This document shows positions 9,983-37,320 of a stretch of 64,000 bases of DNA, piece after piece. Position 1 is the first letter of the stretch. Each line of letters begins with the position of its first letter. Under the pieces are notes generated by a model. The model was not told where the DNA came from, did not search any database, and saw nothing but the letters and a program-made list of their open reading frames with translations. This stretch comes from an uncultured Alphaproteobacteria bacterium. Its GTDB lineage: Bacteria > Pseudomonadota > Alphaproteobacteria > RF32 > CAG-239. Location of the stretch: positions 356-64,355 of the forward strand of contig CALXPU010000007.1 in assembly GCA_944390455.1 (NCBI GenBank). Reading direction: 5' to 3'. A program made the translations under genes and the position numbers.

Positions 9983-10166
9983 TATTAAGAAAAGCTGTTT
10001 ATGCGTGATTGGGAAATGAAGATGGATAATATGTATGTTTTATTCGCTTATGAATTTCCTAAATGTTTTATAAAGATTATCTCAGGCTTCATCTATATTT
10101 AGAGAGTTTATTTTTCCGCTTATATGGCGAGGAGAAATCTCTATAGTTAAGTGAAATATCCTATAA

Positions 10167-10733
10167 TTAAATCAGAGAATACGAAAAATCATCTTGAGAA
10201 ATTAATCTCAAATCAAATTTATCTGCCAAAGGAAGAATAAATAGCTCAAACTGTTCGTATCTTATCTCCATTCTCTCTCTTGTTAAATCGGCTCCGGCTC
10301 TTGCTCTTTGAACTCTTCTTTTATATTCCGTTTCTTTATCTACTTGCATAAAAATTTTATATGCGTTTTCAAAGCTATCGATAATAAGAGCAACACCGAT
10401 ACCTTCAACAATTATTATATCTGCATTTTTAGAATGAATTGCGTTGTCTAAATATTGGTAATTATAGGCTTCGGGAAAGGTCGAAGCAATGTAAGCCGTT
10501 TTAGGTTTTCCGCTTTTGTCATTATATGTAATGAAGTTATTTTTACGATATGCTTTATCTTTCATATAATTATCAGTACTTATAATGCGGACAGTTTTGC
10601 CGGTAAGCTCTAATTTTTCTTGTAATATTTTTGCAAAGGTAGATTTTCCGGCGCCACCATTGCCGGAAATCAAAACAAACTTATATTTGCCTCTTAAAAC
10701 AGTATTACAAATGCTATCTATAGTTTTTTTCAT
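10167..10733 (-). CDS. P-loop nucleoside/nucleotide kinase-like protein (uridine kinase/PRK-like family)
   Basis: Walker A LISGNGGAGKSTFAK. 188 aa small kinase architecture (…IISTDNY…). 15 nt downstream of the MFS gene on the same strand. Confidence 0.55.
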   Translation of the reverse strand: MKKTIDSICNTVLRGKYKFVLISGNGGAGKSTFAKILQEKLELTGKTVRIISTDNYMKDKAYRKNNFITYNDKSGKPKTAYIASTFPEAYNYQYLDNAIHSKNADIIIVEGIGVALIIDSFENAYKIFMQVDKETEYKRRVQRARAGADLTRERMEIRYEQFELFILPLADKFDLRLISQDDFSYSLI

Positions 10734-10748
10734 ATCTTATCTATATTA

Positions 10749-11951: not shown

Positions 11952-12061
11952 TTATTAGTTATTCCGGTTAAGTTCTTCTTGATAGCGTCGGATAATTTTA
12001 TTCATTAGCGGTTTGCAAAAACGGCAAGAGTTCATTTTATTTTCCTGAAGTTGTTTAGTTA

Positions 12062-15471: not shown

Positions 15472-15653
15472 AAATATCTATCAGCAATAAAAAAGGGGGC
15501 GAAGTATCGCACCCTTGCTTTATGCTTTTATTATAAAGAGGTAATTCTTTTTTGTCAAGTTCTTTATTTGCAGTTTTGCTGAAATAAGTTATTGATTTTA
15601 CTGTTTATTTTTATGTATTTTCAAGTTCTCATCAAATTTTGGAGGACTTTTTT

Positions 15654-17603: not shown

Positions 17604-17641
17604 TATTCTCTAAATTATTTTTTATTTAGAGGGGAAATGAA

Positions 17642-18325
17642 ATGTCCGGAATTGTTGAAAAAGCATTGTTATTTGCTAAAGAATGTCATGCAGGAGATAA
17701 TTCCGGACATGATTTTGAGCATATTTTGCGGGTGATGGCTAATGCCGAAAAGATTTTGATGGAAGAGCCTCTGGCCGATGCTGAAGCTGTACGTGTGGCG
17801 GTGGCTTTGCATGATGTTGATGATTACAAATTAGGTTCTGACGGTGCTCGGGCTAAAAGTTTTTTATCTGAAATCGGCGCTCAAGAAGATTTTGCTAGAA
17901 AAGTATTGGATATCGTTAGTTCTATCGGTTTTTCTAAATCGGGTAGTCATCCAAATTTTCAGATGATTGAGCAGGCGATTGTATCTGATGCGGATAAATT
18001 GGATGCGGTTGGAGCGATTGGAGTTTGTCGTACAGCTATGTATTCGGCGGCGACAAAACGTCCGCTCTTTAATGAGCAAATTTTTCCGGATGAAAATTTA
18101 ACACCAGAACAATATCAAAACAAAAATCGGGCGACAAACCACGCTATTAACCATTTTTTTGATAAATTGCTGAAACTTAAAGGTGCGATGCAGACAAAAG
18201 TCGGTAAAATGGAGGCGGAAAAACGCCATTTGTTTATGATTGCGTTTTTAAGAGAATTTTTTGATGAAGTGCGAGCTGATGAGTGGCAAGAATATTTGGA
18301 TAAATTCTTAAAACAAATTGCTTAG
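17642..18325 (+). CDS. HD-domain phosphohydrolase
   Basis: H…HD motif: FEHILRV … VALHDVDDYK … DADKLDAVG. Confidence 0.7.
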   Translation: MSGIVEKALLFAKECHAGDNSGHDFEHILRVMANAEKILMEEPLADAEAVRVAVALHDVDDYKLGSDGARAKSFLSEIGAQEDFARKVLDIVSSIGFSKSGSHPNFQMIEQAIVSDADKLDAVGAIGVCRTAMYSAATKRPLFNEQIFPDENLTPEQYQNKNRATNHAINHFFDKLLKLKGAMQTKVGKMEAEKRHLFMIAFLREFFDEVRADEWQEYLDKFLKQIA

Positions 18326-18352
18326 TTTTCTTTCTTTTTTCATGGAATAGTA

Positions 18353-18381
18353 TTGACCTTAGACAAAAAATATGGTATTAT
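18353..18381 (+). promoter_or_regulatory. sigma70-like promoter TTGACC-N17-TATTAT
   Basis: Seen in sequence about 150 nt upstream of the 18534 ORF. Confidence 0.45.
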
Positions 18382-18533
18382 CTTCTTGTTTACCGTATTA
18401 TTGTTTCTATAGATTTGAACGTTCTTTAGAGTATTTGCTTTAGGGAGTGATTTGGGTTTTGGACTTTAATTGGTGAGCCGTTAAGGGGAAAATCTTCTTA
18501 ATGTATTTTGTTTTTTTTTAAATTTTTTTAACC

Positions 18534-20144
18534 ATGAGACAAAATGTTTTTGTGCGGATTTTTGCCGCAATCATGAGAGTGTGTTTTCCGCTTATGGCGG
18601 TTAAGTACTTCACCAAGAAAACCAACAAACACGCTGAGTTGTTTTTGCCGAGCGAGGCAAAACAGCTTAAAGCAATTGAAAAGCTGGATTTAGACACCGA
18701 CCAGATACGAGCGCGTGTATGGTCTCTTCAGGTCAAAGTTGCGCGATTGCAACAGAGACACAATGACCTGATTCAGGAGATAAAGACTGAACAGGAGTTT
18801 TCCGCTCTTGTAGAGCGTGCTCATGTAGATATTGTTGCGCAAGCAATGAAGTTCTACACCCCGACACAAGAAATGGCTCTGCGTCTTCTGTCTCAATTCG
18901 GTCTGGATGCGGTTGAGCTGATTAATAAAGCTCCGGCGGCGTTTGATGGGCTTAAGGCCAGCGACATCTTGAGTGTTAAGCCAAATGAGGTTTGCGCCCC
19001 TGATAGTCCTCGTTGGGCTTTTGCAGAGGCTCTGGTCTCTAAGCGTTCGTCTTGGGCGCTTAAGTTTTTGGATGAACTTCGCAAGATGCCTCCGCAAAGA
19101 CTTGGCGAGCTGGGGAAAGCTAAATTTAACTTCTTTTTCAAATTCGCGTATGAGGCGAAGGAGAACGTGGCATTTTTGATGCCATATATGGCGGTTTTCT
19201 TCCCCGAGCTTTATGCTCAGGTGAGAGCGAATTTTTTCTTATATAAGGAATTCGCGCCATATATCACAAAAATGTTGCCTGCGAAGTTGAGATACTTGGA
19301 TAAAGGGAGATATAGTTTTCTCTCCAAGGGGTTTTCTCAGATTTCGGTGGAAGGGCAGCTTGATGAAGTCGGAGATGCCTATGCTTGGCTTAGTATTGCC
19401 TATTATAGGATGAATGAGCCGGCGGTTTATGAGCTTATCATTTCCAAGATGAGCGATATTAAGCCGATGGTGTCTGAGTCAATTTACAGTCAGCTTCTTG
19501 ATAGACTGATTGCATTGGCGAATTGTCCGGCGGATGTTTCTCGTCTGCTAAGTCTGGCTGATGACAAACGGAAGCAGGTTCTCTACCATAAAATGGTGGA
19601 GAAAAAATATGCAGTACTTTTGGCTGCTCAATATCCGTTCTCTTCATGGGAGGATAAAGAGCTAATCAAAAGTGCTTTACGTATTGTCATTACCGACAAT
19701 CATTTTCCTTTGGCAAAAATGCACGAACTTCCTGAGGATTTGCAGGAATTTGCAACTTACCAAATGGAAGTATCTGCTCAGATTGCTGCTTTAAAAAGTG
19801 ATATCTTCAAAAATGTAGGGTATCATTTGCTTCCTGAGGTAGAAATCTATCTGGTGCTGATGGATCCGCGGTACTCCTTGAAGTATCAGAAACTCTATGT
19901 TGATGAATTTAAATTGTCTGAAAAGGCATTTAATGCTTTGATACATAGAGAAACTGTTAAACTTCAAGATCAGGTGGTTTTTCCTGATGTTTTGGTTGGC
20001 AAATATGCAGCCAAATGGGGACTGACGGATGAGCAGTATCAAGCATTACTGCAGACACCGATGAAGAAATATACCCTTCAGTGGAAGGAGTATATTAAGA
20101 AACCGGAAGTTTCACATGTTTATCATAACGAAACAGAAGGGTAA
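18534..20144 (+). CDS. hypothetical alpha-helical protein (536 aa), compositionally foreign
   Basis: Long ORF with markedly higher GC and GCG/CTG-rich codon usage than neighbours. No recognisable motifs. Followed by a strong terminator. Confidence 0.55.
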   Translation: MRQNVFVRIFAAIMRVCFPLMAVKYFTKKTNKHAELFLPSEAKQLKAIEKLDLDTDQIRARVWSLQVKVARLQQRHNDLIQEIKTEQEFSALVERAHVDIVAQAMKFYTPTQEMALRLLSQFGLDAVELINKAPAAFDGLKASDILSVKPNEVCAPDSPRWAFAEALVSKRSSWALKFLDELRKMPPQRLGELGKAKFNFFFKFAYEAKENVAFLMPYMAVFFPELYAQVRANFFLYKEFAPYITKMLPAKLRYLDKGRYSFLSKGFSQISVEGQLDEVGDAYAWLSIAYYRMNEPAVYELIISKMSDIKPMVSESIYSQLLDRLIALANCPADVSRLLSLADDKRKQVLYHKMVEKKYAVLLAAQYPFSSWEDKELIKSALRIVITDNHFPLAKMHELPEDLQEFATYQMEVSAQIAALKSDIFKNVGYHLLPEVEIYLVLMDPRYSLKYQKLYVDEFKLSEKAFNALIHRETVKLQDQVVFPDVLVGKYAAKWGLTDEQYQALLQTPMKKYTLQWKEYIKKPEVSHVYHNETEG

Positions 20145-20160
20145 ACTTTAAAGAACAATT

Positions 20161-20196
20161 ATATGGGGTGACGTGAGTCATCCCATATTTTTTTGT
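20161..20196 (+). terminator. rho-independent terminator
   Basis: atatggggtgac-gtga-gtcatcccatat 12-bp stem followed by TTTTTTT. Confidence 0.75.
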
Positions 20197-20270
20197 CTTA
20201 TTATAAATTAGTTGTTGTATTTTTCTATTTTTTATATATCTTTTATTTTATATACAAATTTCTTTAGAAC

Positions 20271-20516
20271 TTGGAGCAAGCTATGCTAGATAGAGTTGAT
20301 GCTTTAGATGTAAAACAGTTTCGGGGGCGAAGCGTTTTTTATTACCAGTCTATTCGGCCGTCTATATACAAAGATAATACGTTTAAACGTGGGTATGGTA
20401 ATGATATGTGTTTTGTGGAAGAAAGAACTCAACAAAATGGATATAAAAATGCACGGGCCAGAGTTATTGATGGTGGTGTAGGACGGTTGACCGCATTGCC
20501 ACCGATTTATTGGTAA
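20271..20516 (+). CDS. small hypothetical protein (81 aa)
   Basis: ORF only. Moderate GC. No motif support. Confidence 0.25.
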   Translation: MEQAMLDRVDALDVKQFRGRSVFYYQSIRPSIYKDNTFKRGYGNDMCFVEERTQQNGYKNARARVIDGGVGRLTALPPIYW

Positions 20517-20688
20517 GGTGTTTGTTGTTGCCTTTTGATGGATGAGTATAGCTTTTTGTGACTTGCGTATTGTTGCTTTGAAATTTTTGTTTTATTGACC
20601 TTTTGAGGTCTTTTTTTGTGCTTGTTTTATGTGGTTTTTTGTGGTAAAATCTCTCTAATAGATGCCTAAATGTTAGGGAGATTTGAAA

Positions 20689-22956
20689 ATGGCTCAAGAG
20701 AAAACGAAAGAAAAAAAATCAAATAAAATTCCTAATTTTGCGGAATATGAACGTGAGCGCCTTAAAAATTTGGCAAGTGAAGCGAGGAAAGCTGCTCAAG
20801 AACTCAAATCTGCCGGACAGAAAATAGGAAAAGAAGTTTTGGATGCTCCGGAAAAAAAAGTTAAAGAGAAGGGAACACTTAAAACATCTTGGGAGGTTTT
20901 TAAGGAAGCCTGGGAAAAAACTGGTAAAGATTTTAGAAAATCAGTTGGCTATAAAATGGGAGAATCTGTTTTTCAGGGATTGTTACCATATTGTCAGAAT
21001 TTGTTATTTGGTTCACTTTCGGGGATTGTTGCCGGTACAAGCGGGGCAACAGCTAAATTCTTTGGAGCGGCAGCTCTTAATGTTGCACGACAAAGATTGG
21101 GGGATTTCTGCCGATTTAAATCTAAAATGGCAACGATTGTTTTAAATGATACGCATGCTAATGCCGCTTCTAGTTCTATCTATAAGGATATTCTTCATAA
21201 ACCGCGTCCGTATTTTAAAGATAATGCTCCAGCATCTTTGGGAGGTTTGACATCAGAGATTGTTTCGGCTAAAAATACTTTGCTAAATAAATCAGTAGAA
21301 TGTATGTCTAAAGTGATTGTATTTGGTATTAGTTCTGCTAGTTTAGTGGCTGTTGATCCGATGCTTGCTGCAGGGGTTTTGGGCGTGACTGTGGTTACGG
21401 CAGAATTTGGCGGATATATGAATAAAGTTTATCGTAAACTCAATAGTAAAATGCGTTCTTTTTCTCATAAAATCTCTAAAGAAAATAGTGATTCAATTAA
21501 AAATACACCACTTGTCCAAGATACTAATCGGGTTGAAGTGGAAACAAAGCAAATGGAAAATCGCTTAAATAAAGCTTCTAAAGTTACACAGAAGATTACA
21601 TATGCTAAGAGTAAAGCTTATCTGAAAATGAGTATGGCTATTAATATCGGTATGGAAGGATTAATTATGGCGGCAGCTTTTGCTGATGTGGTTAAAACCG
21701 GAGATATCGGCCGGTTTGCTCTGATTAGCACGGCTTCGTGGCAGATGATGAGCTCTGGGAATATGCTTTCGGAATTTTGGAATGAAATGCAGGCGGGAAC
21801 GCATAGACTTATTGATGCTTCTAAAAAATTGATTACACCAAAAGAACTTGAACGTGTTACAGGTAAAGAAAAATTAACCGAAAGGGATACTAAAATTAGT
21901 GTGCGAAAAGTTAATTTTGCATATCCGCAAATTAAAGATGTTACCGATATGAGCTTGGTTGAGGCCATGGATCGAGAAGGCGAGATTAAAAGAGGCGAAA
22001 ATGTGCTTAAAGATTTAAGTGTTGAGTTTGATAAAGGTTGTTTAACGGCTGTAGTTGGTACTTCAGGTAATGGCAAATCCACGTTGATGAGCCTTATTCG
22101 TCATGATTATGATGCTCAGTCGGGGCAAATATTTATCGGAAATAAGGAAATTCGTGAATTATCTGATGATGAACTTAATGCGCATATTGCGTTTGTGGAT
22201 CAAAATGTACACTTTTTTGATGAAAGCGTGGGGTATAATCTTAAATATTTTAAGCCTGAAGCTACAGATGAAGAACTTATGCAGGCATGCGAAAAAGCAG
22301 GATTTAATCGTGATATTCAGAAGTTTAATGATGGTCTTTCTCATAAAATCGGGCAAGATGGAGCTAAACTTTCTGGTGGACAAAGACAACGTTTGGCGCT
22401 GGCTCGTGTCTTTTTAACCGATAAACCGATAGTGATCATGGATGAACCGACAACAGGTCTTGATCCAAATCTTAGTCTTAAAATTATGAAGTCTCTTAAA
22501 GATATGGCTCAAGATAAAACGGTGATTATGGTGACACATAATCCAACTGAAGTTGCGCTTTCTGATAGAGTGGTTGTGATTGAAAAAGGTGAAATTGCTG
22601 CGGACGGAAAGCCGATGGATTTGATTAAAACCAGTGAGTTTTTGCGTAATGTCTTAACTAAAGATGATATTAAAAACAAAAATAAGCTTTATCAAACCAG
22701 TATTAATGGGGTTAATCCGATGCAGGAGGCTGCAACTGTGCTTAATGAAGAAGCTAACGGTAAAGTTTTGAGCGATATTGAAAGGGCGGAGAAAAGAAAA
22801 CTTTTGGAAGCGCATAAGAGAGCTTATGTTGGGGTTCGCAAGAAAACGCTTGAAAATCAACGTCGCAAGGAAGGCAAACCTTTACCAGAAAAGAAACAGA
22901 GACAACCTCTTAATCCGCCATCAGCTGTATTAAATCGTGGTGGGGCGGAGATTTAA
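20689..22956 (+). CDS. ABC exporter, fused permease/ATPase with long K/E-rich N- and C-terminal tails (paralog of 15654..17603)
   Basis: NBD GTSGNGKST…LSGGQRQRLALARV…IVIMDEPTTGLD…VTHNP. SD agggag 8 nt before ATG 20689. Extended -10 TGgTAAAAT at about 20643-20651. Confidence 0.8.
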   Translation: MAQEKTKEKKSNKIPNFAEYERERLKNLASEARKAAQELKSAGQKIGKEVLDAPEKKVKEKGTLKTSWEVFKEAWEKTGKDFRKSVGYKMGESVFQGLLPYCQNLLFGSLSGIVAGTSGATAKFFGAAALNVARQRLGDFCRFKSKMATIVLNDTHANAASSSIYKDILHKPRPYFKDNAPASLGGLTSEIVSAKNTLLNKSVECMSKVIVFGISSASLVAVDPMLAAGVLGVTVVTAEFGGYMNKVYRKLNSKMRSFSHKISKENSDSIKNTPLVQDTNRVEVETKQMENRLNKASKVTQKITYAKSKAYLKMSMAINIGMEGLIMAAAFADVVKTGDIGRFALISTASWQMMSSGNMLSEFWNEMQAGTHRLIDASKKLITPKELERVTGKEKLTERDTKISVRKVNFAYPQIKDVTDMSLVEAMDREGEIKRGENVLKDLSVEFDKGCLTAVVGTSGNGKSTLMSLIRHDYDAQSGQIFIGNKEIRELSDDELNAHIAFVDQNVHFFDESVGYNLKYFKPEATDEELMQACEKAGFNRDIQKFNDGLSHKIGQDGAKLSGGQRQRLALARVFLTDKPIVIMDEPTTGLDPNLSLKIMKSLKDMAQDKTVIMVTHNPTEVALSDRVVVIEKGEIAADGKPMDLIKTSEFLRNVLTKDDIKNKNKLYQTSINGVNPMQEAATVLNEEANGKVLSDIERAEKRKLLEAHKRAYVGVRKKTLENQRRKEGKPLPEKKQRQPLNPPSAVLNRGGAEI

Positions 22957-22988
22957 TAATAGCTTATACTTTAAGGTTAGGGGCTTGG

Positions 22989-24734
22989 TTATGATTGGAT
23001 AAAGCCGTCTGACTGCAAATTGAATAAATGGTAAAATTTACCGGATTTGTTTTTGAGCAATTCTTGTGGTGCTCCACTTTCTACGATTTTGCCGTGTTCC
23101 AGCACTACTATTCTATCCATGTTTCTTAAAGTTGATAAGCGGTGGGCAATCGCTATAACGGTTTTGTTTTTCATGATGTTTTGTAGAGCCTTTTGGATGG
23201 CTGTTTCTGATTCGCTATCTAAAGCGGAAGTAGCTTCATCTAAAATTAAAATCGGAGTGTCTTTTAGGATAGCTGAGGCTATGGCTATTCTTTGTCTTTC
23301 GCCGCCGGATACCTTAACTCCTCTTTCTCCGACTACGCTTTGATACCCTTTAGGCATTTTTAAGATTGTGTCGTGAATTTGAGCTAGTTTGGCTGCTTTG
23401 TAAACATCTTCATCGGAGGCTTTAGGGTTTGAAAAGCGGATGTTATTTATTATAGAACGATTGAATAAGGTCGGCTCTTGCGGGATAAGGGCTATATGAC
23501 GGTGTAGCGAACTTTGTGTTATCTTGGCAATGTTTTGCTCAGAAATCTGAATTTCTCCTCCTTTTATGTCATAGGCGCGGAGGATTAAATTGATTAGAGT
23601 TGATTTGCCTGAGCCAGATAAACCAACGATACCGACTTTTTCGTTTGCTTTTATTTCTAGATTGAAATCTTCAAATAATGGGGCTTTGTTTTCATAGGCA
23701 AAGCTCATATTTTTTATGGAAATATTGGGCTTGCTTATTTTTAGTTGCTTGGCGTTGGGGGCGTCATTGACTTCTATCGGTTTATAAATGATATTTATAG
23801 CATCTTCTAAACCGCCTAGGTTTTGTTGATAGCGTATGATAAAATCTCCTATTCTATCTATCGGAGATAAAAGTAAATGAATGTATGTCAAGGCAATCAG
23901 AACTTGGCTGATATTGAGATTTTTTGCATGCCAGAAATAAACTAAAATCAATAGAGATATGACGCGTAAGACCATCAGCGATAAGATATTAAAGCTGTTG
24001 GATATGCCTGTTTCTTGTCCTTTTTTGAGGTAACTTCGGACGACTTTTTTCAGTGTTTTGCCTAAGTAAGCCTTTTCATGCAATACAGCGCCGCAGTTTT
24101 TTACTAGGCGGGCATTGGCGATACTGTCTACGATAATTCCGGCAGCTTCCGACTCTAATTGAGCGTTTTCTCTGGAGATTGGTTTTAGGTTTTTGCAGTG
24201 GTAGTAGTTAAAGAAACTTGTTATTACGCAAAAAAAGGTAATGGATGTGGCTAAGCCTTTGTCAACGCTGAATAATATCGGTAAGGCAACTGCATAGGGG
24301 ATAATGACTGCTTCCAATACGCCTTTAAAACTCCAGCAGAGATTTATGGTTTGAAGGACAAGTTGAATAACTTTATTAGATATTTTTCCGGACATTTCTT
24401 CGGTAAAATATGAAGTGGAGTGTTTATGTGTGTACTTGAATGCGTCTTTGTAAATATTGCGTTTTAGAAAAATATCCATGCGAAATTCAAAAATGGTGCG
24501 TAGGCCGTCGCAAATATTTGAGCCAAAATGTAGGGCAGCGTATATGGCAACATAGGTTATAGAAGTGCTGGTTATAATTTGCGTTGGATTTTCAACAATG
24601 TAACCGAACAACGATGCAATGTAGTAATTGTCTAGGTAAATAAATACACGACTGAGCCCAAATAAACCAAAGGTGGCGATGGTGTACAATTTAATTCGTC
24701 TTAAGTATTTGAAAATAAATTTTATTGCGGTCAT
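22989..24734 (-). CDS. ABC transporter ATP-binding/permease protein, MsbA-like exporter (tandem paralog 1 of 3)
   Basis: 6-TM TMD plus NBD (GLSGSGKST, VSGGERQRIAIA, ILILDEATSALD, IAHRL). Confidence 0.9.
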   Translation of the reverse strand: MTAIKFIFKYLRRIKLYTIATFGLFGLSRVFIYLDNYYIASLFGYIVENPTQIITSTSITYVAIYAALHFGSNICDGLRTIFEFRMDIFLKRNIYKDAFKYTHKHSTSYFTEEMSGKISNKVIQLVLQTINLCWSFKGVLEAVIIPYAVALPILFSVDKGLATSITFFCVITSFFNYYHCKNLKPISRENAQLESEAAGIIVDSIANARLVKNCGAVLHEKAYLGKTLKKVVRSYLKKGQETGISNSFNILSLMVLRVISLLILVYFWHAKNLNISQVLIALTYIHLLLSPIDRIGDFIIRYQQNLGGLEDAINIIYKPIEVNDAPNAKQLKISKPNISIKNMSFAYENKAPLFEDFNLEIKANEKVGIVGLSGSGKSTLINLILRAYDIKGGEIQISEQNIAKITQSSLHRHIALIPQEPTLFNRSIINNIRFSNPKASDEDVYKAAKLAQIHDTILKMPKGYQSVVGERGVKVSGGERQRIAIASAILKDTPILILDEATSALDSESETAIQKALQNIMKNKTVIAIAHRLSTLRNMDRIVVLEHGKIVESGAPQELLKNKSGKFYHLFNLQSDGFIQS

Positions 24735-26488
24735 GCTTCTTCTCCATAAGAAAGATAGCCATTGTTTTGGAGCTGATAAAGTTTGTAGAATGTGCCGGAT
24801 TTGTTTTTGAGTAGTTCATCTATGGAACCTTCTTCAATTATCTTGCCATTTTCTAAGACGATTATTCTATCCATGCTTCTTAAGGTTGATAAACGGTGAG
24901 CAATGGCGATAACGGTTTTATCTTTGATGATATTTTGTAATGCCTTTTCTATCATTATTTCCGCTTCACTGTCTAAGGCCGATGTTGCTTCATCCAAAAT
25001 TAAAATCGGAGCATCTTTTAGGATAGCAGAGGCTATGGCTATTCTTTGTCTTTCGCCGCCGGATACCTTAACGCCTCTTTCTCCGACTACGCTTTGATAC
25101 CCTTTAGGCATTTTTAAAATCGTGTCGTGAATTTGAGCTAGTTTGGCTGCTTTGTAAACATCTTCATCAGATGCTTTGGGGTTTGAAAAGCGGATGTTAT
25201 TCATTATGGAGCGGTTAAATAAACTGGGTTCTTGTGGAATTAAGGCTATGTGATGGCGCAACGAACTTTGTGTCACTTCTGTAATATTTTGCTCGGAAAT
25301 CTTAATTTCTCCCCCTTTTATATCATAGGCGCGAAGAATTAAATTGATTAGAGTGGATTTGCCGGAGCCTGATAAACCAACGATACCGACTTTCTCGTTT
25401 GCTTTTATTTCTAGATTGAAATCTTCAAACAATGGGGCTTTGTTTTCATAAGCAAAGCTCATATTTTTGATAGAGATATTGGGGGTGTTTATTTTTAATT
25501 GTTTAGCGTTGGGAGCATCATTTATTTCTATCGGTTTATAGATGACATTTATAGCATCCTCCAAAGAGCCTGTGTCTTGTAAATAGCGAAGAAATGCAGC
25601 TCCTATTTGATTTATGGGGGATAATGCTAACTGAATGTAAGTTAAGGCAATCAGAACTTGGCTGATGTTGAGATTTTTTGTATGCCAGAAGTAAACTAAA
25701 ATCAGTAAAGATATGACACGCAAGACCATTAGGGATGTAGTATTGAAACTGATTGATATTCCTCTTTCGTGTCCTTGTTTTAAATGGCTTTTGATGACTT
25801 TTTTAAGAGCTTTACCTAAGTAAGCCTTTTCATGCAATATGGCACCGCAATTTTTAACTAGGCGAGCATTGGCAATGCTATCCACGATAATTCCGGTGGC
25901 TTCTGACTCTAATTTTGCATTTTCTTTGGATATCGGTTTTAGAATCTTGCTGTGCCAACAGTTGAGGAGACTTGTTATTATGCAAAAAAAGATGATGGAT
26001 GTAGCTAAACCTTTGTCAATACTAAACAATATCGGTAGGGCGACAGCATAAGGAATAATGACGATTTCAAGTATTATTTTAAAACACCCACAAAAATATA
26101 TTGAACTATCTACAAGTTGAATAATTTTATCAGATACTTTTCCGGACATTTCTTCCGTAAAATAAGAAGAGGAGTGTTTATGCGTATGTTTGAATGCATC
26201 TTTATAAATATTGCGTTTTAAGAAAATATCCATGCGAAGTTCTGTAAAGGCACGAATACTATCGATTACGTTTGAACTAAAGTGCAAGAGAGTATATATG
26301 ATAATATAGGTTAAAGAAGTGTTGGTTATTATTTGTGTCGGATTTTCGGCTATATAACCGAATAATGAGGCTATATAATAATTGTCCAGATAAATGAGAG
26401 TGCGTTCAAGGCTATATAAACCAAGTGTTGCGATGGTGTAGAGCTTGATTTGCTTAAAATATTTGAAAATAAATTTTATTGCAGTCAT
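24731..26488 (-). CDS. ABC transporter ATP-binding/permease protein, MsbA-like exporter (tandem paralog 2; mosaic)
   Basis: Same architecture. ATGA overlap with paralog 1. Middle section near-identical to paralog 1, last about 85 codons identical to paralog 3. Confidence 0.9.
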   Translation of the reverse strand: MTAIKFIFKYFKQIKLYTIATLGLYSLERTLIYLDNYYIASLFGYIAENPTQIITNTSLTYIIIYTLLHFSSNVIDSIRAFTELRMDIFLKRNIYKDAFKHTHKHSSSYFTEEMSGKVSDKIIQLVDSSIYFCGCFKIILEIVIIPYAVALPILFSIDKGLATSIIFFCIITSLLNCWHSKILKPISKENAKLESEATGIIVDSIANARLVKNCGAILHEKAYLGKALKKVIKSHLKQGHERGISISFNTTSLMVLRVISLLILVYFWHTKNLNISQVLIALTYIQLALSPINQIGAAFLRYLQDTGSLEDAINVIYKPIEINDAPNAKQLKINTPNISIKNMSFAYENKAPLFEDFNLEIKANEKVGIVGLSGSGKSTLINLILRAYDIKGGEIKISEQNITEVTQSSLRHHIALIPQEPSLFNRSIMNNIRFSNPKASDEDVYKAAKLAQIHDTILKMPKGYQSVVGERGVKVSGGERQRIAIASAILKDAPILILDEATSALDSEAEIMIEKALQNIIKDKTVIAIAHRLSTLRSMDRIIVLENGKIIEEGSIDELLKNKSGTFYKLYQLQNNGYLSYGEEA

Positions 26489-28245
26489 GCTTCTTCTCCA
26501 TAAGAAAGATAGCCATTATTTTGGAGCTGATAAAGTTTATAGAATGTACCGGATTTGTTTTTGAGTAGTTCATCAATGGGACCTTCTTCAATTATCTTGC
26601 CATTTTCTAAGACAATTATTCTATCCATGCTTCTTAATGTAGAAAGTCTATGAGCGATGGCAATCACGGTTTTATCTTTGATGATATTTTGTAATGCCTT
26701 TTCTATCATTATTTCCGCTTCACTGTCTAAGGCCGATGTTGCTTCATCCAAAATTAAAATCGGAGCATTTTGTAAAATAGCGCGGGCAATAGCAATGCGT
26801 TGTCTTTCTCCACCGGAAAGCATTGTCCCTCTTTCACCGACGACGCTATTGTATCCGTGTGGTAAATTCATAATGGTTTTATCAATTTGTGCTAATTGAG
26901 CGGCTTGGCGGATTTGCTCTTCGCTCGCTTGTGAGTTGGTTATACGCAAATTTTCCAAGATACTACGATTAAATAAGGCGGTATCTTGTGAGATAACGGC
27001 AATGTTTTTGTGGTGGGAGCGGAAAGTTAAGTCTTTGATATTTGTTTTGTTTAGCAATATTTCTCCGCTGTCTACATCATAAGCGCGAAGTAATAAGTTA
27101 ATCAAGGTGGATTTTCCTGAGCCGGAATGTCCGACTACTCCAATCTTTTCTCCGGCTTTGATATGTAGATTTAGGTTTTCAAATATCGGTTTGCCTTTGA
27201 TGTATGCAAAGTTTACGTTTTTGAATATTATTTCAGCTTTTGTTGGGCGTATGTTGATGGCGTTTTCTTTTTCTTTGATGTCAATGGGTTGGTTTAGGGT
27301 TGAGAAATTAGCACGAATTCCTCCCAGCTGATCAGATATAAATTGGCAGTAGTTGTTTATGCCCATGGTGGCTAAAACTAAGTTGACCAAGGTGGTGTAA
27401 ACGTAAAACAGATTATCCAGAGCGATATTGTCTTTTTGTGCAAAATATAAGATTAAAAAGATTCCGGAGGTTAAGAATACGGTATCTATTGCATGAAAGG
27501 TAAAACGCGAAACAATTTGATAACGTCCTTGTTCGGCTATGCGTAAAAGGGCTTGTTTTAAGCTTTTGTAAAAATAAAGTTGTTCGCTGAAAAATGATCC
27601 GCTGTATTTGACTAAATTGGCATTGGCAATGCTGTCTACTAAAATGCCTTTGGCTATGTTTTCATAATTTACACGATTTCGGCCTAAATCAAAAAAGTGA
27701 CGATTTACTTTATATACGGCGAAAAAATATGGAATGTTTATTGCAAATAATAGGGCGCTTAGTGATGGACTGAATGTTGCTATAATGGAATAAGATACGA
27801 TTAAAATTCCCATTGGACGGATGAGTAAAAAACAGGTATCCGAGAATAATTGTGTTAAACTCTGGCATAATCCTGTTAGTGCCGATGATATACGACCACT
27901 CATTTCATCATCAAAGTAACGAACGGAATGAGCATGAATTTTGGTGAAAATGTCTGTTACTAAATGACTTAAAAATGTTTGGGAAAAGGCGTCTTTTATA
28001 TATGTGGCGTAGTAGCCGTTTACGAGGGCGCGGATAAGGTAATATCCGACTAATATCAATAAAATTGTGAAACATTGATTGAGCGCTTCGGTTGAGTTTT
28101 TTATTTCAAAGCAACCAACAAGGCGGCTGATAAGCCATGTTTCTAATGGTAAAATGATGCAGGTCAAAATGAATGTAATGCAAAAAAGAATAAACAGTTT
28201 TTTACATTTTTTAAGATTTTTTAATATAAGCGTTCTAATATCCAT
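26485..28245 (-). CDS. ABC transporter ATP-binding/permease protein, MsbA-like exporter (tandem paralog 3)
   Basis: TMD plus NBD (GHSGSGKST, LSGGERQRIAIARA, ILILDEATSALD). ATGA overlap with paralog 2. Confidence 0.9.
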   Translation of the reverse strand: MDIRTLILKNLKKCKKLFILFCITFILTCIILPLETWLISRLVGCFEIKNSTEALNQCFTILLILVGYYLIRALVNGYYATYIKDAFSQTFLSHLVTDIFTKIHAHSVRYFDDEMSGRISSALTGLCQSLTQLFSDTCFLLIRPMGILIVSYSIIATFSPSLSALLFAINIPYFFAVYKVNRHFFDLGRNRVNYENIAKGILVDSIANANLVKYSGSFFSEQLYFYKSLKQALLRIAEQGRYQIVSRFTFHAIDTVFLTSGIFLILYFAQKDNIALDNLFYVYTTLVNLVLATMGINNYCQFISDQLGGIRANFSTLNQPIDIKEKENAINIRPTKAEIIFKNVNFAYIKGKPIFENLNLHIKAGEKIGVVGHSGSGKSTLINLLLRAYDVDSGEILLNKTNIKDLTFRSHHKNIAVISQDTALFNRSILENLRITNSQASEEQIRQAAQLAQIDKTIMNLPHGYNSVVGERGTMLSGGERQRIAIARAILQNAPILILDEATSALDSEAEIMIEKALQNIIKDKTVIAIAHRLSTLRSMDRIIVLENGKIIEEGPIDELLKNKSGTFYKLYQLQNNGYLSYGEEA

Positions 28246-29730: not shown

Positions 29731-31392
<1,662 letters not shown>

Positions 31393-31510
31393 TCTTTTTG
31401 TTGCTTATTTGACAGCCGGATTTTTTCCGGCTGTTTTTGTTTGTATAAACTTAATTTTAATTATTGTCTGTTATCCTAGAACACAACAGGTGTTTTTTAG
31501 GATATTTGAA

Positions 31511-34500
31511 ATGGGACTACTTAAACGTATTTTTGGCGTTAATATTTTATTTTTGTTTCTTTTTTGTGCCGTTAATGAGGCTAAAGCATTGTCTTTTGCT
31601 GGTTTTGCATATCAAAATGCAAGGCAGGCAAATATTATTGCGATAAAAAATTATCTTAAAAAAGGATATAAAATAGATTCCATTTCTCCGAATGGATATA
31701 CAGCTTTGTGCTATGCTGCTGCATATAATGATTATCCGGCATATAGTCGTTTACGTAATTTAGGGGCTGATGAAAATCATGAGTGTATGCAAAAGGTTAA
31801 TCCGGCTTATGTGCAAGATTTGGCGCAAAGATATGACGCAGTGGCTTCTCATCCTAACTATGCTTCTAATTTAGCGGATTCAGATACAACTAAAAAATAT
31901 TTAATTGCAGGAACTGCTTTGGCCGGAACAGCTGCCGCGGTTGCTTTGTTGGCAGATAGTGGTAGTGGTGGTTCTTCCGGAAATACAAATCGTTGTCCTA
32001 TCGGTCAAGAATGGGATGGCGAACAATGTATTCCGATTATTTGTCCGGACGGAACTCATTTAGAGGGAAATAATTGTGTTTCATGTCCTACCGGTCAGAA
32101 ATGGGATGGTTCTAAATGTATTCCGATTATTTGTCCTGATAATACGCATTTGGTTGGGAATGATTGTGTTGCCGACGATATTAATATTGATAACGATAAT
32201 GATAAGGACGTGTATGGAATTTATTCGGAAGAAGAAGATGTATATAATTTACGTTCAGATTCTGAATATCCTGATAAAGAGGCGAATATTAATATAGATA
32301 ATAAGGGTAATGGTAACGTTTATGGTATTTATGGCTTTGGTAATATTAAGAATTCCGGTGTTACAGATGCTGAGGCTGATGGAGAAGCTAATGTTGGTGT
32401 AGGAAATATTACTATTAATAATCAAGGTACTGGTAATGTTTTTGGAATTTACTCTCATGTTGAAGATATTTCTATTTTGAAAGAAGCATATATTGCCATG
32501 GCAACAAAAGGTGGTACAGCGTATGGCAACTTGGAGATAAATAATCAAGGCGGAGGGACCGCAACCGGTGTTTATGGCGATGTGCGCGCTTATAATGCCA
32601 GAGGTAATTTTGGTGGAAAAGCATACGGAAATATTACTATTCGCAATGACGGTGATATTTATGGTTTGAGCGGATATACTAATGCGACTAATGTAATTAC
32701 ATTTAATGGTGGTGGTGAAGCTAAAGGTGTCATTAATTTATATAGCAAAGGTGATGGAGACATTTATGGAATGGCCGTTAGTCCTGATGGAATTCCAGGA
32801 GTAGGGCAGCCTGAAGGTGGAGAGGGGCAGTTAGCAAATTGGTTTGCATATAACTCAGTGGTTTACAGTGATAATAGCTATGATTGGACGGGAAAGACAT
32901 CTACATCTGCTGAGATTAATATTCATAATATAGGTGATGGTAATGTGTATGGAATGTATGGAGGACAAACTCTTCAAAATGCTATTTACCAAGGAGTTGT
33001 GGATGGAGAAGGAAATGTTCAAGGTCTTGCAGATGGCTTGATTAGCATTGTTAATCATGGGAATGGTGATGTTTATGGTATGTATACGCTTGGTGGAAAA
33101 GATGGTACTCCGTCCAATATAGGTAATGTTACTAATGATGGCGCTCATTCGGTTATTAATATTGTTAATAGCGGAGATGGGGTTTCAACAGGTTTGCGTG
33201 GTGGCCAAGGTGGTTATATTGAAAATTCAGGTGAAATTAATATTAATAATTTAGGAAACGGTACTGCTGTTGGTATTTATGGTGGGGCAAATTCAAATAT
33301 TGTTAATAGCGGAACTATTAATATTTATCGTAAAGCCTATGTAGATGATGAAATGAAGCAAACTTATACACCTGAAAGTGCAACAGGCGGTACGGCTTAT
33401 GGTATTTATGCGGAAACAGGTTCTCATGTTATTAATGCTGGAACTATTACTGTTACGGGAGCGGATAAAGGAGCCGGTATTTATTTAGAAGCAGGGGCAA
33501 CATTTGAAAATTCCGGAGATGTTAAGTTTAATGGTTCTTCAGATTCCGCTATTCAAGAAGATGGAGAAGCTATTGATATTTATGGGGATGGGACAGATAG
33601 AGCTTCTGTTGACTTGAATGATATTGGTGGAGAAATTATTTTAGGACAAGGCGGACGCTTTTTTGCGGATAGCCTAAAAGGCGATATGAGTGTTTCCGAA
33701 AAAAATGTATTAGGTGGTTTTGATAATCAATATGTCTTGACGGGAGCTTTGCAAGCGGATGATGTTGATGAGTTGAATTTAAATTCTAAATCGGCAATGT
33801 TTGAAGCTACTTCTCAGAAAAATGAAAATGGTGGATATGATGTCGTTATGACGCGTCAGAACTTTAAAGATATTATTGATGATGATAATATTTCTGGTTA
33901 TCTTGAAAATAATTATGTTGGTGAAAACGGAAGTAAGATTTTTGATAGTTTGAAAACCGCAGGCGATAAAGGTACTCTTAATCAGAAAGCGGCAAATCTT
34001 TTAGGAACGGATATGTTACCAAATTTCCGTCGTGAAGATGCTTTGCTTTATCGTAATTTGAGCCGACAATTTAATGATAATTTATTTAATCAGCCTAATC
34101 AGAATTATATTGGCGGATATAAATATGTTGATATTTCAACAGATGCTGATGGTACACTTATGGGAACCGATGGTCAGGCTCATGTTGCTTATGGCATGAT
34201 GAAAAATAAAGGCGATAACGGAGTTACCTATGGTTTAGGGGCTAGTATTGCTAAGCTTAACAGCGATTATGACAATGGTTCTAAACGTGATGCCAATATT
34301 TTTGGGGTATGGGCTCCTGTTGGATATGATTTTAAAAATGGTGCACAATGGTATTCTAAATTGTATCTAGGTTATGTTGATGGCTCTTATGATCGTATAA
34401 CAGATTTACAGAAATATTCTGCAGATATGAATGAATATCAATATGGATTGAGTAATGAAGTTCGCTATGATTTGAGTTTAGGTGGTGGTTTTACATTTAG

Positions 34501-34906
34501 TCCATTAGCTGAATTAAATTTGTTTGGCGTTTATAGCGATGGTTATGATGAGGGGAATGATGAAGGAGCAATTCATACTGATAGCCAAAATGATTTATCT
34601 TTAGAAGGTGGACTTGGCGCTTATTTGGCTAAAAAGGTTGATTTTTCTGATGATAGTCATTTGACGGTTCAAATTGGTGGTGTTTATTATGTAGAATTTC
34701 TTGATCCGGATGATGGTTTTGATGCTTCTGTATCCGCTCTTGATGGCAAATATAAATTATCACACAAGTCAGATGATGGACGTGCTGTTTTATCTGCTCG
34801 CGTAAATTATAACTATAAAGATATTACAATTTATGGAAATATTGAAAAAGAAACATCAAATGATAAAAGTTTACTTATTGATGCTGGGGTGCAATATAAA
34901 TTTTAA
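31511..34906 (+). CDS. autotransporter (type Va) adhesin-like protein with N-terminal signal peptide, ankyrin-like segment, Cys-rich tandem modules and Gly-rich beta-helix repeats
   Basis: Signal peptide MGLLKRIFGVNILFLFLFCAVNEAKA. NGYTALCYAAAYNDYPAYSRLRNLGADEN matches the ANK consensus. 2x 29-aa CP.GQ.WDG..CIPIICPD.THL.GN.CV repeats. More than 10 I.I.N.G.G.VYG(I/M)YG repeats. C-terminal beta-barrel ending ...GVQYKF (aromatic terminus). The track ORF start 31337 overlaps groEL and is an over-extension. Confidence 0.7.
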   Translation: MGLLKRIFGVNILFLFLFCAVNEAKALSFAGFAYQNARQANIIAIKNYLKKGYKIDSISPNGYTALCYAAAYNDYPAYSRLRNLGADENHECMQKVNPAYVQDLAQRYDAVASHPNYASNLADSDTTKKYLIAGTALAGTAAAVALLADSGSGGSSGNTNRCPIGQEWDGEQCIPIICPDGTHLEGNNCVSCPTGQKWDGSKCIPIICPDNTHLVGNDCVADDINIDNDNDKDVYGIYSEEEDVYNLRSDSEYPDKEANINIDNKGNGNVYGIYGFGNIKNSGVTDAEADGEANVGVGNITINNQGTGNVFGIYSHVEDISILKEAYIAMATKGGTAYGNLEINNQGGGTATGVYGDVRAYNARGNFGGKAYGNITIRNDGDIYGLSGYTNATNVITFNGGGEAKGVINLYSKGDGDIYGMAVSPDGIPGVGQPEGGEGQLANWFAYNSVVYSDNSYDWTGKTSTSAEINIHNIGDGNVYGMYGGQTLQNAIYQGVVDGEGNVQGLADGLISIVNHGNGDVYGMYTLGGKDGTPSNIGNVTNDGAHSVINIVNSGDGVSTGLRGGQGGYIENSGEININNLGNGTAVGIYGGANSNIVNSGTINIYRKAYVDDEMKQTYTPESATGGTAYGIYAETGSHVINAGTITVTGADKGAGIYLEAGATFENSGDVKFNGSSDSAIQEDGEAIDIYGDGTDRASVDLNDIGGEIILGQGGRFFADSLKGDMSVSEKNVLGGFDNQYVLTGALQADDVDELNLNSKSAMFEATSQKNENGGYDVVMTRQNFKDIIDDDNISGYLENNYVGENGSKIFDSLKTAGDKGTLNQKAANLLGTDMLPNFRREDALLYRNLSRQFNDNLFNQPNQNYIGGYKYVDISTDADGTLMGTDGQAHVAYGMMKNKGDNGVTYGLGASIAKLNSDYDNGSKRDANIFGVWAPVGYDFKNGAQWYSKLYLGYVDGSYDRITDLQKYSADMNEYQYGLSNEVRYDLSLGGGFTFSPLAELNLFGVYSDGYDEGNDEGAIHTDSQNDLSLEGGLGAYLAKKVDFSDDSHLTVQIGGVYYVEFLDPDDGFDASVSALDGKYKLSHKSDDGRAVLSARVNYNYKDITIYGNIEKETSNDKSLLIDAGVQYKF

Positions 34907-34919
34907 GTGAGAGGGAAAT

Positions 34920-35654
34920 ATGGAAAAATTTATTTTATATATTAGACAGGGAAAAGGAATTGGGGCGCTCTTTTTATTAGCAGCAGCTGTATTGATTACC
35001 ATGATGTTGGCCATTTCTCTTAGAAATTCGTATTCTGAAGCGAAACCGGAAATTATGTTGGTTGCTAATGAATTTTTGCCGTTGACGGTTAAGGATGGTC
35101 AAGTTGTGCAACCTGTTGATGCATATAAAAAAGTTGATATTGATTTAGGACAACAAGGTAAGCCTGAAGATTTGTTTTCGGTTGTTTTGGATACCAGAGC
35201 TGATGCTAAAGCTCCGGCTATGAATGAATTGGGGATTTTTATTACCAAAGATGTTGTTTATTTGTCATCTCCAAATCAAATTAAACGTATTCAATTTCAA
35301 GATGGGGAATTCACTAAAGAAAATTTTCCGGAAATAGTTGATAATGCTGTTGGTGCTGTTTCTGCTATTGTGGTTTTGGTTTTGTTAATCTTTTTCTTTA
35401 TTACATATTTAATTAAAACCGGTTTTGTTGTTTTGTTTATGTCTTTGATTTTAAGGATATTGAAAAAGAAAGAGTTAATTCGCACATCATCTTTGATGCG
35501 TTTGAGTGCCGTTACTGTTGCCGGAGTGGAGTTTTTAGTTTTTGTATTGGATTTAGTACTTGATTCTGCAACGTTAGGCATTGTGCGTTTTGGTATTGCT
35601 TTTGTTCTTGTTTTAGTTTTTGTTTTTAAATTTTTGCTAAATGAGAATAAATAA
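34920..35654 (+). CDS. hypothetical integral membrane protein
   Basis: 244 aa. TM helix near the N-terminus and a C-terminal cluster of 3-4 TM helices. 13 nt after the autotransporter stop. Confidence 0.5.
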   Translation: MEKFILYIRQGKGIGALFLLAAAVLITMMLAISLRNSYSEAKPEIMLVANEFLPLTVKDGQVVQPVDAYKKVDIDLGQQGKPEDLFSVVLDTRADAKAPAMNELGIFITKDVVYLSSPNQIKRIQFQDGEFTKENFPEIVDNAVGAVSAIVVLVLLIFFFITYLIKTGFVVLFMSLILRILKKKELIRTSSLMRLSAVTVAGVEFLVFVLDLVLDSATLGIVRFGIAFVLVLVFVFKFLLNENK

Positions 35655-35802
35655 ATTACGGATGTTATCAAAAAATCCCCTTGTTAGGGGATTTTTTGTT
35701 TGTGTGCATATGATGTGGTAAAACTATCTTTTTACTTGATTATATAGTCAGATGTAGTTTACTTTTATATCATGTTAATTGATATATAAGTTAGGAGCTC
35801 TT

Positions 35803-37320
35803 ATGTCTTTTCGTTTTTGTTGTTTGGTTTTAGGGTGTATGGTTTTAAATTTCCATGCGGCTTGGGCTACGTATACTTATAAAGAAGATGATACTCGTAT
35901 GGTTAATGGCATATTGTATGACATTAACGGTGATCCGGTGACAGGTAATTATGAGCTCTTTTATGAAAATAATATCAGAAAAAGTTTGATGCCGTATGTT
36001 GACGGAATGTTAAACGGTGTGGGCTCTGTTTATAATGAACAAGGAATAAAAGAAGCAGATATGCCGTTCATTAATGGAAAGTTAGAAGGTGTGGCACTGG
36101 TTTATTATGAAGACGGAAGCCTTAAGGAGAAAATCCCTTATAGAGGTGGTAAGATTAATGGTGTTATGAGAGCTTTCTACAAAAATGGTCAGGTTAAGGA
36201 TAGAATATCTTATGATGCAGATATTAAAAACGGAACGGCGAAATCATATTATGAAGATGGAAAATTAAAGGAACTCTATAATTATACCGATGGGCAGAAA
36301 GAAGGGGAAGCTACGGTTTATTTTTACGATGGGAGTATTGCTGAAAAACTTAACTATAGTGGAGATGCTATTGTCGGAGAGCGGACAATCTATTATAAAA
36401 GCGGACGCGTTAAATCTCGTATGAGTTATGAGTTTGGTAAAAAGAATGGCAATATGCAGAACTATTATGAAAGCGGTGGTTTAGCAGCGATTGTTCCTTA
36501 TAAGGATGATATTATTGATGGAGAAGGATCTTTTTATACTGAAGATGGTGTACTGAATTTAACGGTTAATTATAAAAATAATGTTCGCGATGGGGTGGCT
36601 CGTGCTTATTTCCCAAATGGTTCGGTTAAACTTGCAGTAGAATATCAAAATGATGTCAAAAATGGAGTTGAAACTGAATATTTTGAAGATGGTAAAGTAA
36701 AAATGGAAATGCCTTATGTTAATGGGGTTGTTAATGGTATTGGGCGTGAGTATTATGAAACTTCCGGTTTGAAAATGGAAATGACGTATGTTGATGCTGT
36801 GGCAAATGGCGTGGCAAAGTTTTATGATGAAAAAGGAAAGTTGTCTGTAGAGGCTTATTATAAAGATGGTAAGAAAGATGGTCTTCAGAAGAATTTTGAT
36901 GAAGATGGTAAGCTTGTTTCTGAAAGTAATTTTGTTAAAGATGTTTTGAATGGCGAATATAAAGAATTTTATGATTCAGGTAAGGTTAAGTCTACAGCTA
37001 ATTATACAGATGGAGTGTTGGAAGGTTTGACACTTGTTTATGATGAGGATGGAAATTTATCTTATGAAATTCCTTATGTTAAAAACAGAAAAGAAGGAAA
37101 AGTAAAACGTTATTATCCGACCGGAGAGCTTATGGGCGAAGTTTCTTATGAAAAAGGTAAGAAACATGGTATGTTGGATGCGTATAATCAAGATGGAACT
37201 TTAATGGCTAAGGTCTTGTTTAATAAAGATGAGGCTATTAAGGGGTATAGTCTTAATCATGGTAAAGATCCTGTGTTGATGTCTGAAGAAGAACTCAAAC
37301 TGATTAACGACGCGTATTAG
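35803..37320 (+). CDS. secreted MORN-variant repeat protein (YwqK-family repeats)
   Basis: Signal peptide MSFRFCCLVLGCMVLNFHAAWA, then about 17 tandem YwqK/MORN2-type repeats (…NG…YYE(D/N)GKLK…Y…GKK(N/D)G…). AGGAG SD 5 nt before ATG 35803. The track ORF starts at TTG 35779. Confidence 0.65.
   Translation: MSFRFCCLVLGCMVLNFHAAWATYTYKEDDTRMVNGILYDINGDPVTGNYELFYENNIRKSLMPYVDGMLNGVGSVYNEQGIKEADMPFINGKLEGVALVYYEDGSLKEKIPYRGGKINGVMRAFYKNGQVKDRISYDADIKNGTAKSYYEDGKLKELYNYTDGQKEGEATVYFYDGSIAEKLNYSGDAIVGERTIYYKSGRVKSRMSYEFGKKNGNMQNYYESGGLAAIVPYKDDIIDGEGSFYTEDGVLNLTVNYKNNVRDGVARAYFPNGSVKLAVEYQNDVKNGVETEYFEDGKVKMEMPYVNGVVNGIGREYYETSGLKMEMTYVDAVANGVAKFYDEKGKLSVEAYYKDGKKDGLQKNFDEDGKLVSESNFVKDVLNGEYKEFYDSGKVKSTANYTDGVLEGLTLVYDEDGNLSYEIPYVKNRKEGKVKRYYPTGELMGEVSYEKGKKHGMLDAYNQDGTLMAKVLFNKDEAIKGYSLNHGKDPVLMSEEELKLINDAY

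Follow-up and report, generated by a model that had tools for sequence, protein, structure and literature searches.

Autotransporter passengers are usually Cys-poor β-helices. NalP of Neisseria, a lipoprotein autotransporter, carries a lipobox followed by poly-Gly. The autotransporter toxin VacA of Helicobacter pylori requires an uncharged N-terminal segment of 32 residues with GXXXG motifs for channel formation (PMC4926140). In this study, we analyzed a stretch of 64,000 nucleotides (hereafter the window) from an uncultured Alphaproteobacteria bacterium (RF32; CAG-239; assembly GCA_944390455.1, contig CALXPU010000007.1, positions 356-64,355, forward strand), and found that the gene directly downstream of groEL (31511..34906, + strand) encodes a 1131-aa autotransporter. 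Like the AIDA-I/BigA-like type Va autotransporters (PF03797, PF25783 and PF27417), this protein has a Sec signal peptide, a Cys-free and Gly-rich predicted β-solenoid passenger, a BigA-type β-sandwich junction, a predicted pore helix and a 12-strand barrel with a terminal Phe. Unlike them, it contains an N-terminal ankyrin (ANK) domain, an Ala/Gly-rich hydrophobic segment (H2) and a tandem array of putative disulfide hairpins. We consider it rather probable that the protein is a surface-displayed, adhesin-type type Va autotransporter of a gut or rumen alphaproteobacterium, whose variable stalk bears the conserved ANK domain as its distal tip.

The protein is a classical monomeric (type Va) autotransporter: all the features of this class that could be tested were found, with the fold of the passenger taken from structure prediction only. 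The β-domain PF03797 was detected at aa 872-1111 with E = 4e-20 (73 bits, compared with a cut-off of 26 bits in Pfam). A full-length AlphaFold2 (AF2) model was built from an alignment of 67 sequences, with a predicted local distance difference test (pLDDT) score of 84 and a predicted template modelling (pTM) score of 0.69. From the N-terminus, it consists of helices (aa 29-112), a disordered stretch (aa 114-160), four β-hairpins (aa 166-221), ~40 short strands (aa 224-672), a β-sandwich (aa 699-782), a helical junction (aa 785-860) and a 12-strand barrel (aa 866-1130). In Foldseek searches against the PDB, the best matches of the barrel were all autotransporter barrels (AaaA with 3e-13, EstA, EspP, NalP, Hbp, BrkA and AIDA-I), and NalP was the closest fold by TM-score (1uyn, TMt 0.80). 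The coding region of the barrel, including the stop codon (34106..34906, +; aa 866-1131), ends with YKF, and this C-terminal aromatic residue (β-signal) has its counterpart in the F or L that ends most of the 75 homologues. The original prediction had made the autotransporter reading depend on a C-terminal β-barrel, which it described as ending in F; profile search and structure prediction both found the barrel, and the reading stands.

The barrel is preceded by a helical junction (33863..34105, +; aa 785-865), which is highly conserved in the family consensus and is modelled as helices at aa 792-803, 808-815, 820-831 and 837-860. The last and long one (nt 34019-34090) directly precedes the first barrel strand and is predicted to occupy the barrel pore. 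Further upstream, a β-sandwich (33605..33862, +; aa 699-784, AF2 strands over 699-782) matches PF25783 (BigA_beta; E = 3.8e-7, aa 724-783). Homologues also carry PF27417, which is BigA_3rd, and therefore the junction is BigA-like. At the other end of the protein, inspection of the sequence revealed the predicted Sec-type signal peptide (31511..31588, +; aa 1-26, MGLLKRIFGVNILFLFLFCAVNEAKA, then cleavage before LS), with K5 and R6 in the n-region, IFGVNILFLFLFCAV as the h-region, and a c-region of NEAKA before the L of the mature protein, which places AKA at positions -3 to -1. This signal peptide is conserved in the 67 aligned homologues. The n-region is short and ordinary, and no Pfam match was found in aa 1-30 at E<=1; the protein is not an autotransporter with an extended signal peptide region (ESPR). 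More than 75 full-length homologues exist, and the few named ones are called 'autotransporter domain-containing protein'; an NCBIfam search of the protein gave no match.

The N-terminal domain (31589..31846, +; aa 27-112) is, at the level of the family, an ankyrin-repeat domain, made of two helix-turn-helix repeats (helices 29-38/42-50 and 65-71/75-83) with capping helices. Its membership rests on the family profile because the query alone falls below the Pfam cut-off (Ank_2, E = 0.0074, 17.3 bits vs 27.3 bits). When a profile of 39 N-terminal domains of the family was compared with the PDB, only ANK proteins appeared in the top 60 matches, for example 4rlv (4.9e-44) and the four-repeat design 1n0r (4.4e-13). 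Among these 39 members, Pfam detected Ank_2 in 37 (best 1.8e-5) and Ank_4 in 32 (best 3.8e-7). An AF2 model of the domain (pLDDT 95.1, pTM 0.85) retrieved only ANK proteins or designed ankyrin repeat proteins in the top 50 Foldseek matches in the PDB, with a probability of 0.99-1.00. The ANK-like segment noticed earlier at aa 62-89 is thus confirmed by both the family profile and the fold matches. The best superpositions were on the bacterial proteins AnkB (9iq8, the best match; TMq 0.62) and ABAYE2397 (5d66; TMq 0.55), both of which are also matched by the family profile. Unlike these two proteins, the domain described here has about two repeats, is fused to an autotransporter, and has Cys (TALC, C67) in place of the His of the TPLH motif, together with a second invariant Cys, C92, 25 residues further on. 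The invariant residues of this N-terminal region are C67, G85 and C92, and a C67-C92 disulfide probably locks the ankyrin domain.

The claim that ankyrin and disulfide modules are uncommon in a passenger is plausible. Ankyrin is never mentioned in the text of the 2012 autotransporter census (PMC3419190), and we found no description of an ankyrin-bearing passenger in the literature; the only papers found deal with Rickettsiales, where Ank effectors and autotransporters are separate proteins. The hydrophobic segment and the disulfide-hairpin array are likewise absent from the text of PMC3419190 and from the literature searched.

The disulfide-hairpin array consists of two tandem 30-aa Cys modules (31994..32173, +), which correspond to four β-hairpin units of the form C-P-x-G-x4-G-x2-C with 8 Cys in total. 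Tandem Repeats Finder reported a period of 90 with 2.0 copies and 78% matches (31994-32170). Module 1 (aa 162-191; nt 31994-32083) and module 2 (aa 192-221; nt 32084-32173) share 22 of 30 residues (73%) and 69 of 90 nucleotides (77%), and each has four Cys in two C-x10-C half-units. Tandem Cys modules had been correctly recognized in the original prediction, but not their size, their Cys content or their degree of similarity, as they had been described as near-identical 29-aa modules with three Cys arising from an 87-bp duplication. AF2 models the region as four β-hairpins with pLDDT 63-86. The mature protein has ten Cys, all within the N-terminal 220 aa, and aa 222-1131 are Cys-free. The Cys pairs are spaced by 11 residues, the most common spacing among natural Cys pairs of passengers (PMC9769942), and both this hairpin spacing and the N-terminal placement of the Cys residues fit a type V export pathway that tolerates short loops. 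A distal ankyrin domain and five potential disulfides would probe the accepted limits of this export pathway.

The Cys units resemble EGF-like and Sushi (complement control protein) domains in being short disulfide-rich β-hairpin modules with a C-x2-G-x2-L-x-G...C...G-x-W...C pattern. The 10-unit Cys array of the homologue P0010 (aa ~160-320) weakly matches a Sushi domain (1vvc, E = 2e-4) from the complement control protein of vaccinia, and a distant relative matches EGF_Teneurin/EGF_2. However, the unit described here has 14-16 aa and 2 Cys, whereas EGF has 6 Cys in ~40 aa and Sushi 4 Cys in ~60 aa. No EGF or Sushi match was found by Pfam in the query, where DUF5874 scored 17.8 bits, below its cut-off of 27.1 bits. 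The Cys units belong to neither the EGF nor the Sushi domains, and the pattern C..G..L.G...C...G.W....C of P0010 and Sushi is likely shared by convergence.

Following the Cys modules, a Gly/Asn-rich and Cys-free repeat region (32174..33526, +; aa 222-672) is predicted by AF2 to form a β-solenoid stalk, in which most of the short strands have pLDDT >90; this is the structure prediction that had been proposed for the passenger. The strict motif [ILV]x[ILVF]x[N..]xGxGx[VI][YF]G[IM] occurs 7 times in aa 221-700, compared with 0.012 expected from 2000 shuffles, and the looser xYG[IM]Y core 9 times, compared with 0.37 in shuffles. By eye, ~12 Gly-rich repeats can be counted at aa 234-690 (nt ~32210-33580). 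The repeats proposed earlier are therefore real, albeit their number exceeds 10 only by eye, and their span is wider than the ~32290-33330 given before. Considering their irregular spacing (108-324 nt) and their nucleotide identity of 60-76%, these repeats are structural coils of the predicted β-helix rather than a slippage-prone tandem DNA array.

The original prediction overlooked H2 (31898..31954, +; aa 130-148, YLIAGTALAGTAAAVALLA), a conserved segment between the ankyrin domain and the Cys modules, as well as the fact that the N-terminal cassette, of which H2 is part, is shared by a wider autotransporter superfamily. H2 is uncharged, with 34% Ala and 19% Gly, and forms a second hydrophobic peak in nearly all of the 75 closer homologues and also in distant paralogue families. 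AF2 leaves it disordered, with pLDDT 25-32 and no helix, and nine H2 segments scanned against Pfam at E<=10 gave no credible match, to glycine-zipper families or otherwise. H2 is followed by a flexible Gly/Ser-rich linker (31955..31993, +; aa 149-161, DSGSGGSSGNTNR), which was delimited from alignments and from AF2 (pLDDT <50); many relatives have poly-Gly or poly-Asp at this position. A stop-transfer transmembrane helix was considered for H2 and rejected: the barrel would then be left behind in the cytoplasm, and the hydrophobicity summed over the segment is marginal, at +0.97 kcal/mol in the query and a median of +2.0 in the relatives. The marginal hydrophobicity is consistent with export of everything downstream.

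In NalP and other lipoprotein autotransporters, too, the passenger is preceded by a hydrophobic segment and then a Gly-rich linker. Unlike in these proteins, there is no lipobox Cys: the motif [LVI][ASTVI][GAS]C was found at or near H2 in none of 97 relatives, and the protein is not a lipoprotein autotransporter of the NalP/SphB1 type. It differs from NalP also in that the hydrophobic segment is internal, ~100 aa past a separate signal peptide, and in that the passenger is not a subtilisin-like protease. One could still imagine that H2 is the relic of a lipoprotein-type signal peptide, left when a signal peptide and an ankyrin domain were later fused to the N-terminus of a NalP/BigA-like ancestor, and that it is now scarcely more than a linker. 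In line with such a history, H2 and the linker look like a signal h-region, then a lipobox with Gly for Cys, then poly-Gly (e.g. ...GVALAAG-GGGGGGSS). Moreover, the protein has BigA-type junction domains, its closest barrel by TM-score is that of NalP, and BigA and NalP fall in one barrel group (PMC3419190). A relic would be expected to decay, yet hydrophobicity is retained in ~97 sequences, the Cys in none of them, and H2 shows low dN/dS and no variable site among close alleles. We regard this origin as quite improbable.

The composition of H2 also invites a comparison with VacA, likewise an autotransporter. Its passenger, β-helical as is predicted here too, has close to its N-terminus an uncharged hydrophobic segment rich in Gly and Ala, in that case needed for channels (PMC4926140). 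By analogy, H2 could insert into a host or competitor membrane after export while the ankyrin domain provides targeting, and its conservation and the flexible linkers on both of its sides would suit such a role. However, by inspection H2 has no regular tandem GXXXG pattern, it follows a folded domain rather than forming a free N-terminus, and AF2 predicts no helix for it. Pfam and PDB searches detected no similarity to VacA. We therefore give a VacA-style membrane-active passenger little chance.

The cassette, consisting of signal peptide, ankyrin domain, H2 and Gly-rich linker, is found at the N-terminus not only of the closer homologues but also of distant relatives of 1000-2000 aa (P0076-P0103), the passengers of which are 26-33% identical or of another type (EGF-like or Hyphal_reg_CWP-like regions). 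Five of seven distant cassette proteins tested have PF03797 at the C-terminus. Two further searches contributed little to this picture. A homologue search by word index that started from the cassette alignment gave no more than 16 fragments, all of them short, truncated or frameshifted, presumably since low-complexity words swamped it, and an exhaustive HMMER search with the cassette profile returned 149,225 matches, mostly multi-repeat ankyrin proteins, which are uninformative on cassette distribution. Several short 'proteins' (P0122, P0123, P0126 and P0131, relatives of P0103) correspond to the N-terminal cassette of a 1955-aa relative and lose frame at or near the poly-Gly tract after the hydrophobic segment. 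These out-of-frame cassettes could reflect an assembly or frameshift error at the G-rich tract, or a phase-variable tract; the autotransporter gene of the window has no poly-Gly tract.

That the cassette is retained across divergent autotransporters suggests that these proteins share a ligand or a biogenesis step in little-known host-associated Alphaproteobacteria. If the latter were the case, the cassette would be a leader, specific to this lineage, for the secretion or biogenesis of large autotransporters rather than a binding tip. It would act in the periplasm or at a membrane by tethering, by preventing misfolding or by docking, with a function analogous to that of the ESPR in large type V proteins. 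Its persistence in P0076-P0103 despite such different passengers, the presence of PF03797 in most of the distant proteins tested, the invariance of C67, G85 and C92, and the lack of variable sites in the signal peptide and H2 among close alleles would all be accommodated. So would the best fold match of the ankyrin domain, bacterial AnkB, which is periplasmic. On the other hand, a folded domain as a type V leader has no known precedent, there is no known cleavage site to remove the cassette, ankyrin repeats typically bind proteins, and a shared distal binding tip accounts for the same conservation. A leader function thus seems unlikely, albeit less so than the membrane-active or relic readings of H2. 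In a broader and tentative proposal, the cassette would be an undescribed conserved N-terminal module that defines an autotransporter superfamily in uncultured gut and rumen Alphaproteobacteria and has a mechanistic role of its own rather than being an incidental fusion: it would serve in type V biogenesis or anchoring, or else form a common tip that targets the host and engages membranes.

The autotransporter evolves far faster than its neighbouring genes. In comparison with two related loci (L001 and L002), GroEL is 98% and the autotransporter 81% identical, and with two others (L003 and L004) the values are 94% and 49%. At L005, where GroEL is 99.6% identical, the N- and C-terminal parts of the autotransporter are ~95% and its middle ~70% identical by eye, and there is an exact 241-aa β-helix indel at aa 549/550 with homologous coils on both flanks. 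Pairwise comparison with L001, L002 and L005 by region gave dN/dS values of 0.03-0.09 for the ankyrin domain, 0.04-0.20 for H2 and linker, 0.05-0.07 for the barrel and ~0.2 for the middle of the β-helix, which is the most diverged part (65-68% identity). The ankyrin domain, the hydrophobic segment and the barrel are under strong purifying selection. The dS of the autotransporter (0.26-1.5 by region, mostly >0.6) is generally above that of groEL (0.26-0.49), which suggests either that the alleles are imported or ancient, or that the codons of groEL are strongly constrained.

Among nine alleles with at least 90% identity, the number of variable sites per 100 aa was 0 in the signal peptide, 0 in H2 and linker, 2.3 in the barrel, 4.7 in the ankyrin domain, 9.5 in the β-helix, 17 in the loop and β-sandwich (aa 673-784) and 21.7, the highest value, in the Cys modules. 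All four gametes were present at 140 of 300 informative site pairs; therefore, these alleles are recombinant mosaics. The repeats had been put forward as candidates for copy-number variation, and this is seen across homologues, which have 1-16 Cys units and, at L005, the 241-aa indel, but not among the nine close alleles, where the number of Cys units is constant. The locus thus represents a mosaic, length-variable putative surface antigen beside the highly conserved groESL, and is therefore a handy strain marker in metagenomes.

These data can be assembled into a model of an adhesin with a conserved ankyrin tip. The cleavable signal peptide would direct passage through Sec. The 12-strand barrel (aa 866-1131) would then insert into the outer membrane and hold helix 837-860 within its pore, as the predicted structure and homology suggest, and the Cys-free Gly/Asn-rich region (aa 222-672) would be exported and fold as a β-solenoid stalk, seated on the predicted BigA-type β-sandwich and helical junction. 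The N-terminus would be the distal end, with the four disulfide hairpins, the Gly/Ser linker, H2 and finally the two-repeat ankyrin tip, probably locked by the C67-C92 disulfide. In this arrangement, the tip would be a putative conserved protein-binding element, and the stalk and Cys hairpins, judging from sequence comparison, would be the antigenically variable and recombining parts.

Several points weigh against an adhesin with a distal ankyrin tip. Surface exposure of the ankyrin domain is deduced from the presumed topology, and the type V pathway may have difficulty in exporting an ankyrin domain that is folded and disulfide-bonded. The β-helix fold of the passenger is an AF2 prediction, and a full-length profile matched only ANK proteins in the PDB, with no relative of the passenger. 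The same cassette on distant autotransporters with different passengers fits a role in biogenesis or anchoring equally well, and a model of an adhesin tip leaves H2 unexplained. Finally, dN/dS is <1 throughout the gene, with no sign of positive selection.

As to the boundaries of the gene, the position directly after groEL and the length of 1131 aa given in the original prediction were borne out, and AGGA lies 10 nt 5' of the ATG at 31511. Upstream starts, a GTG at 31337 in the mechanical list of open reading frames and a nearby ATG in the public gene call (P0001, 1184 aa), were rejected, as the extension crosses the groEL stop and a terminator hairpin. We took 31511 as the start because the homologues begin with MGLLKRIF or MELLKRIF; the public 1184-aa call is probably a start-codon mis-annotation. 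The intrinsic-terminator-like hairpin after groEL (31411..31435, +; a 10-bp stem with 6 GC pairs, then a T run) delimits the autotransporter transcription unit on its upstream side. On the downstream side, a gene for a DUF1189 membrane protein (34920..35654, +; PF06691, E = 4.6e-10) starts 14 nt past the autotransporter stop, with no terminator in between. The two genes look like a single unit, because the first terminator-like hairpin after them is at 35669-35698, and they probably form one transcription unit.

The gene order GT-groES-groEL-AT-DUF1189-MORN-ugd, in which AT stands for the autotransporter, is kept in related metagenome-assembled genomes (MAGs), which come from gut, rumen and other metagenomes and carry the label uncultured Alphaproteobacteria. 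The DUF1189 gene is syntenic in L001, L002, L004 and L005, but is absent beside L003 and L006-L009 and missing beside the distant paralogues. The identity of its product is 62-64% to L001 and L002, compared with 97-100% for the housekeeping neighbours, and 42% and 96% to L004 and L005, respectively. Further downstream, a protein of 513 aa (35779-37320), hydrophobic at its N-terminus, consists nearly entirely of MORN_2 repeats (PF07661, E = 4e-64), and four related MAGs show its gene in synteny with the autotransporter.

The window contains no second autotransporter or second cassette protein, and searches for tRNA genes and for Rfam families (gathering threshold) found none. Genes for ATP-binding cassette (ABC) exporters are unusually dense at 15639-28245, with three tandem ABC_membrane+ABC_tran genes on the minus strand (22989-28245) and two larger ABC proteins (15639-17603 and 20683-22956). 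GC skew is strongly positive over almost the whole window (cumulative 6.06), and at 10001-12000 there is a patch of low GC content (29.6%) and negative skew with two minus-strand genes, one for a major facilitator superfamily transporter and one for an AAA/Zeta-toxin-like kinase.

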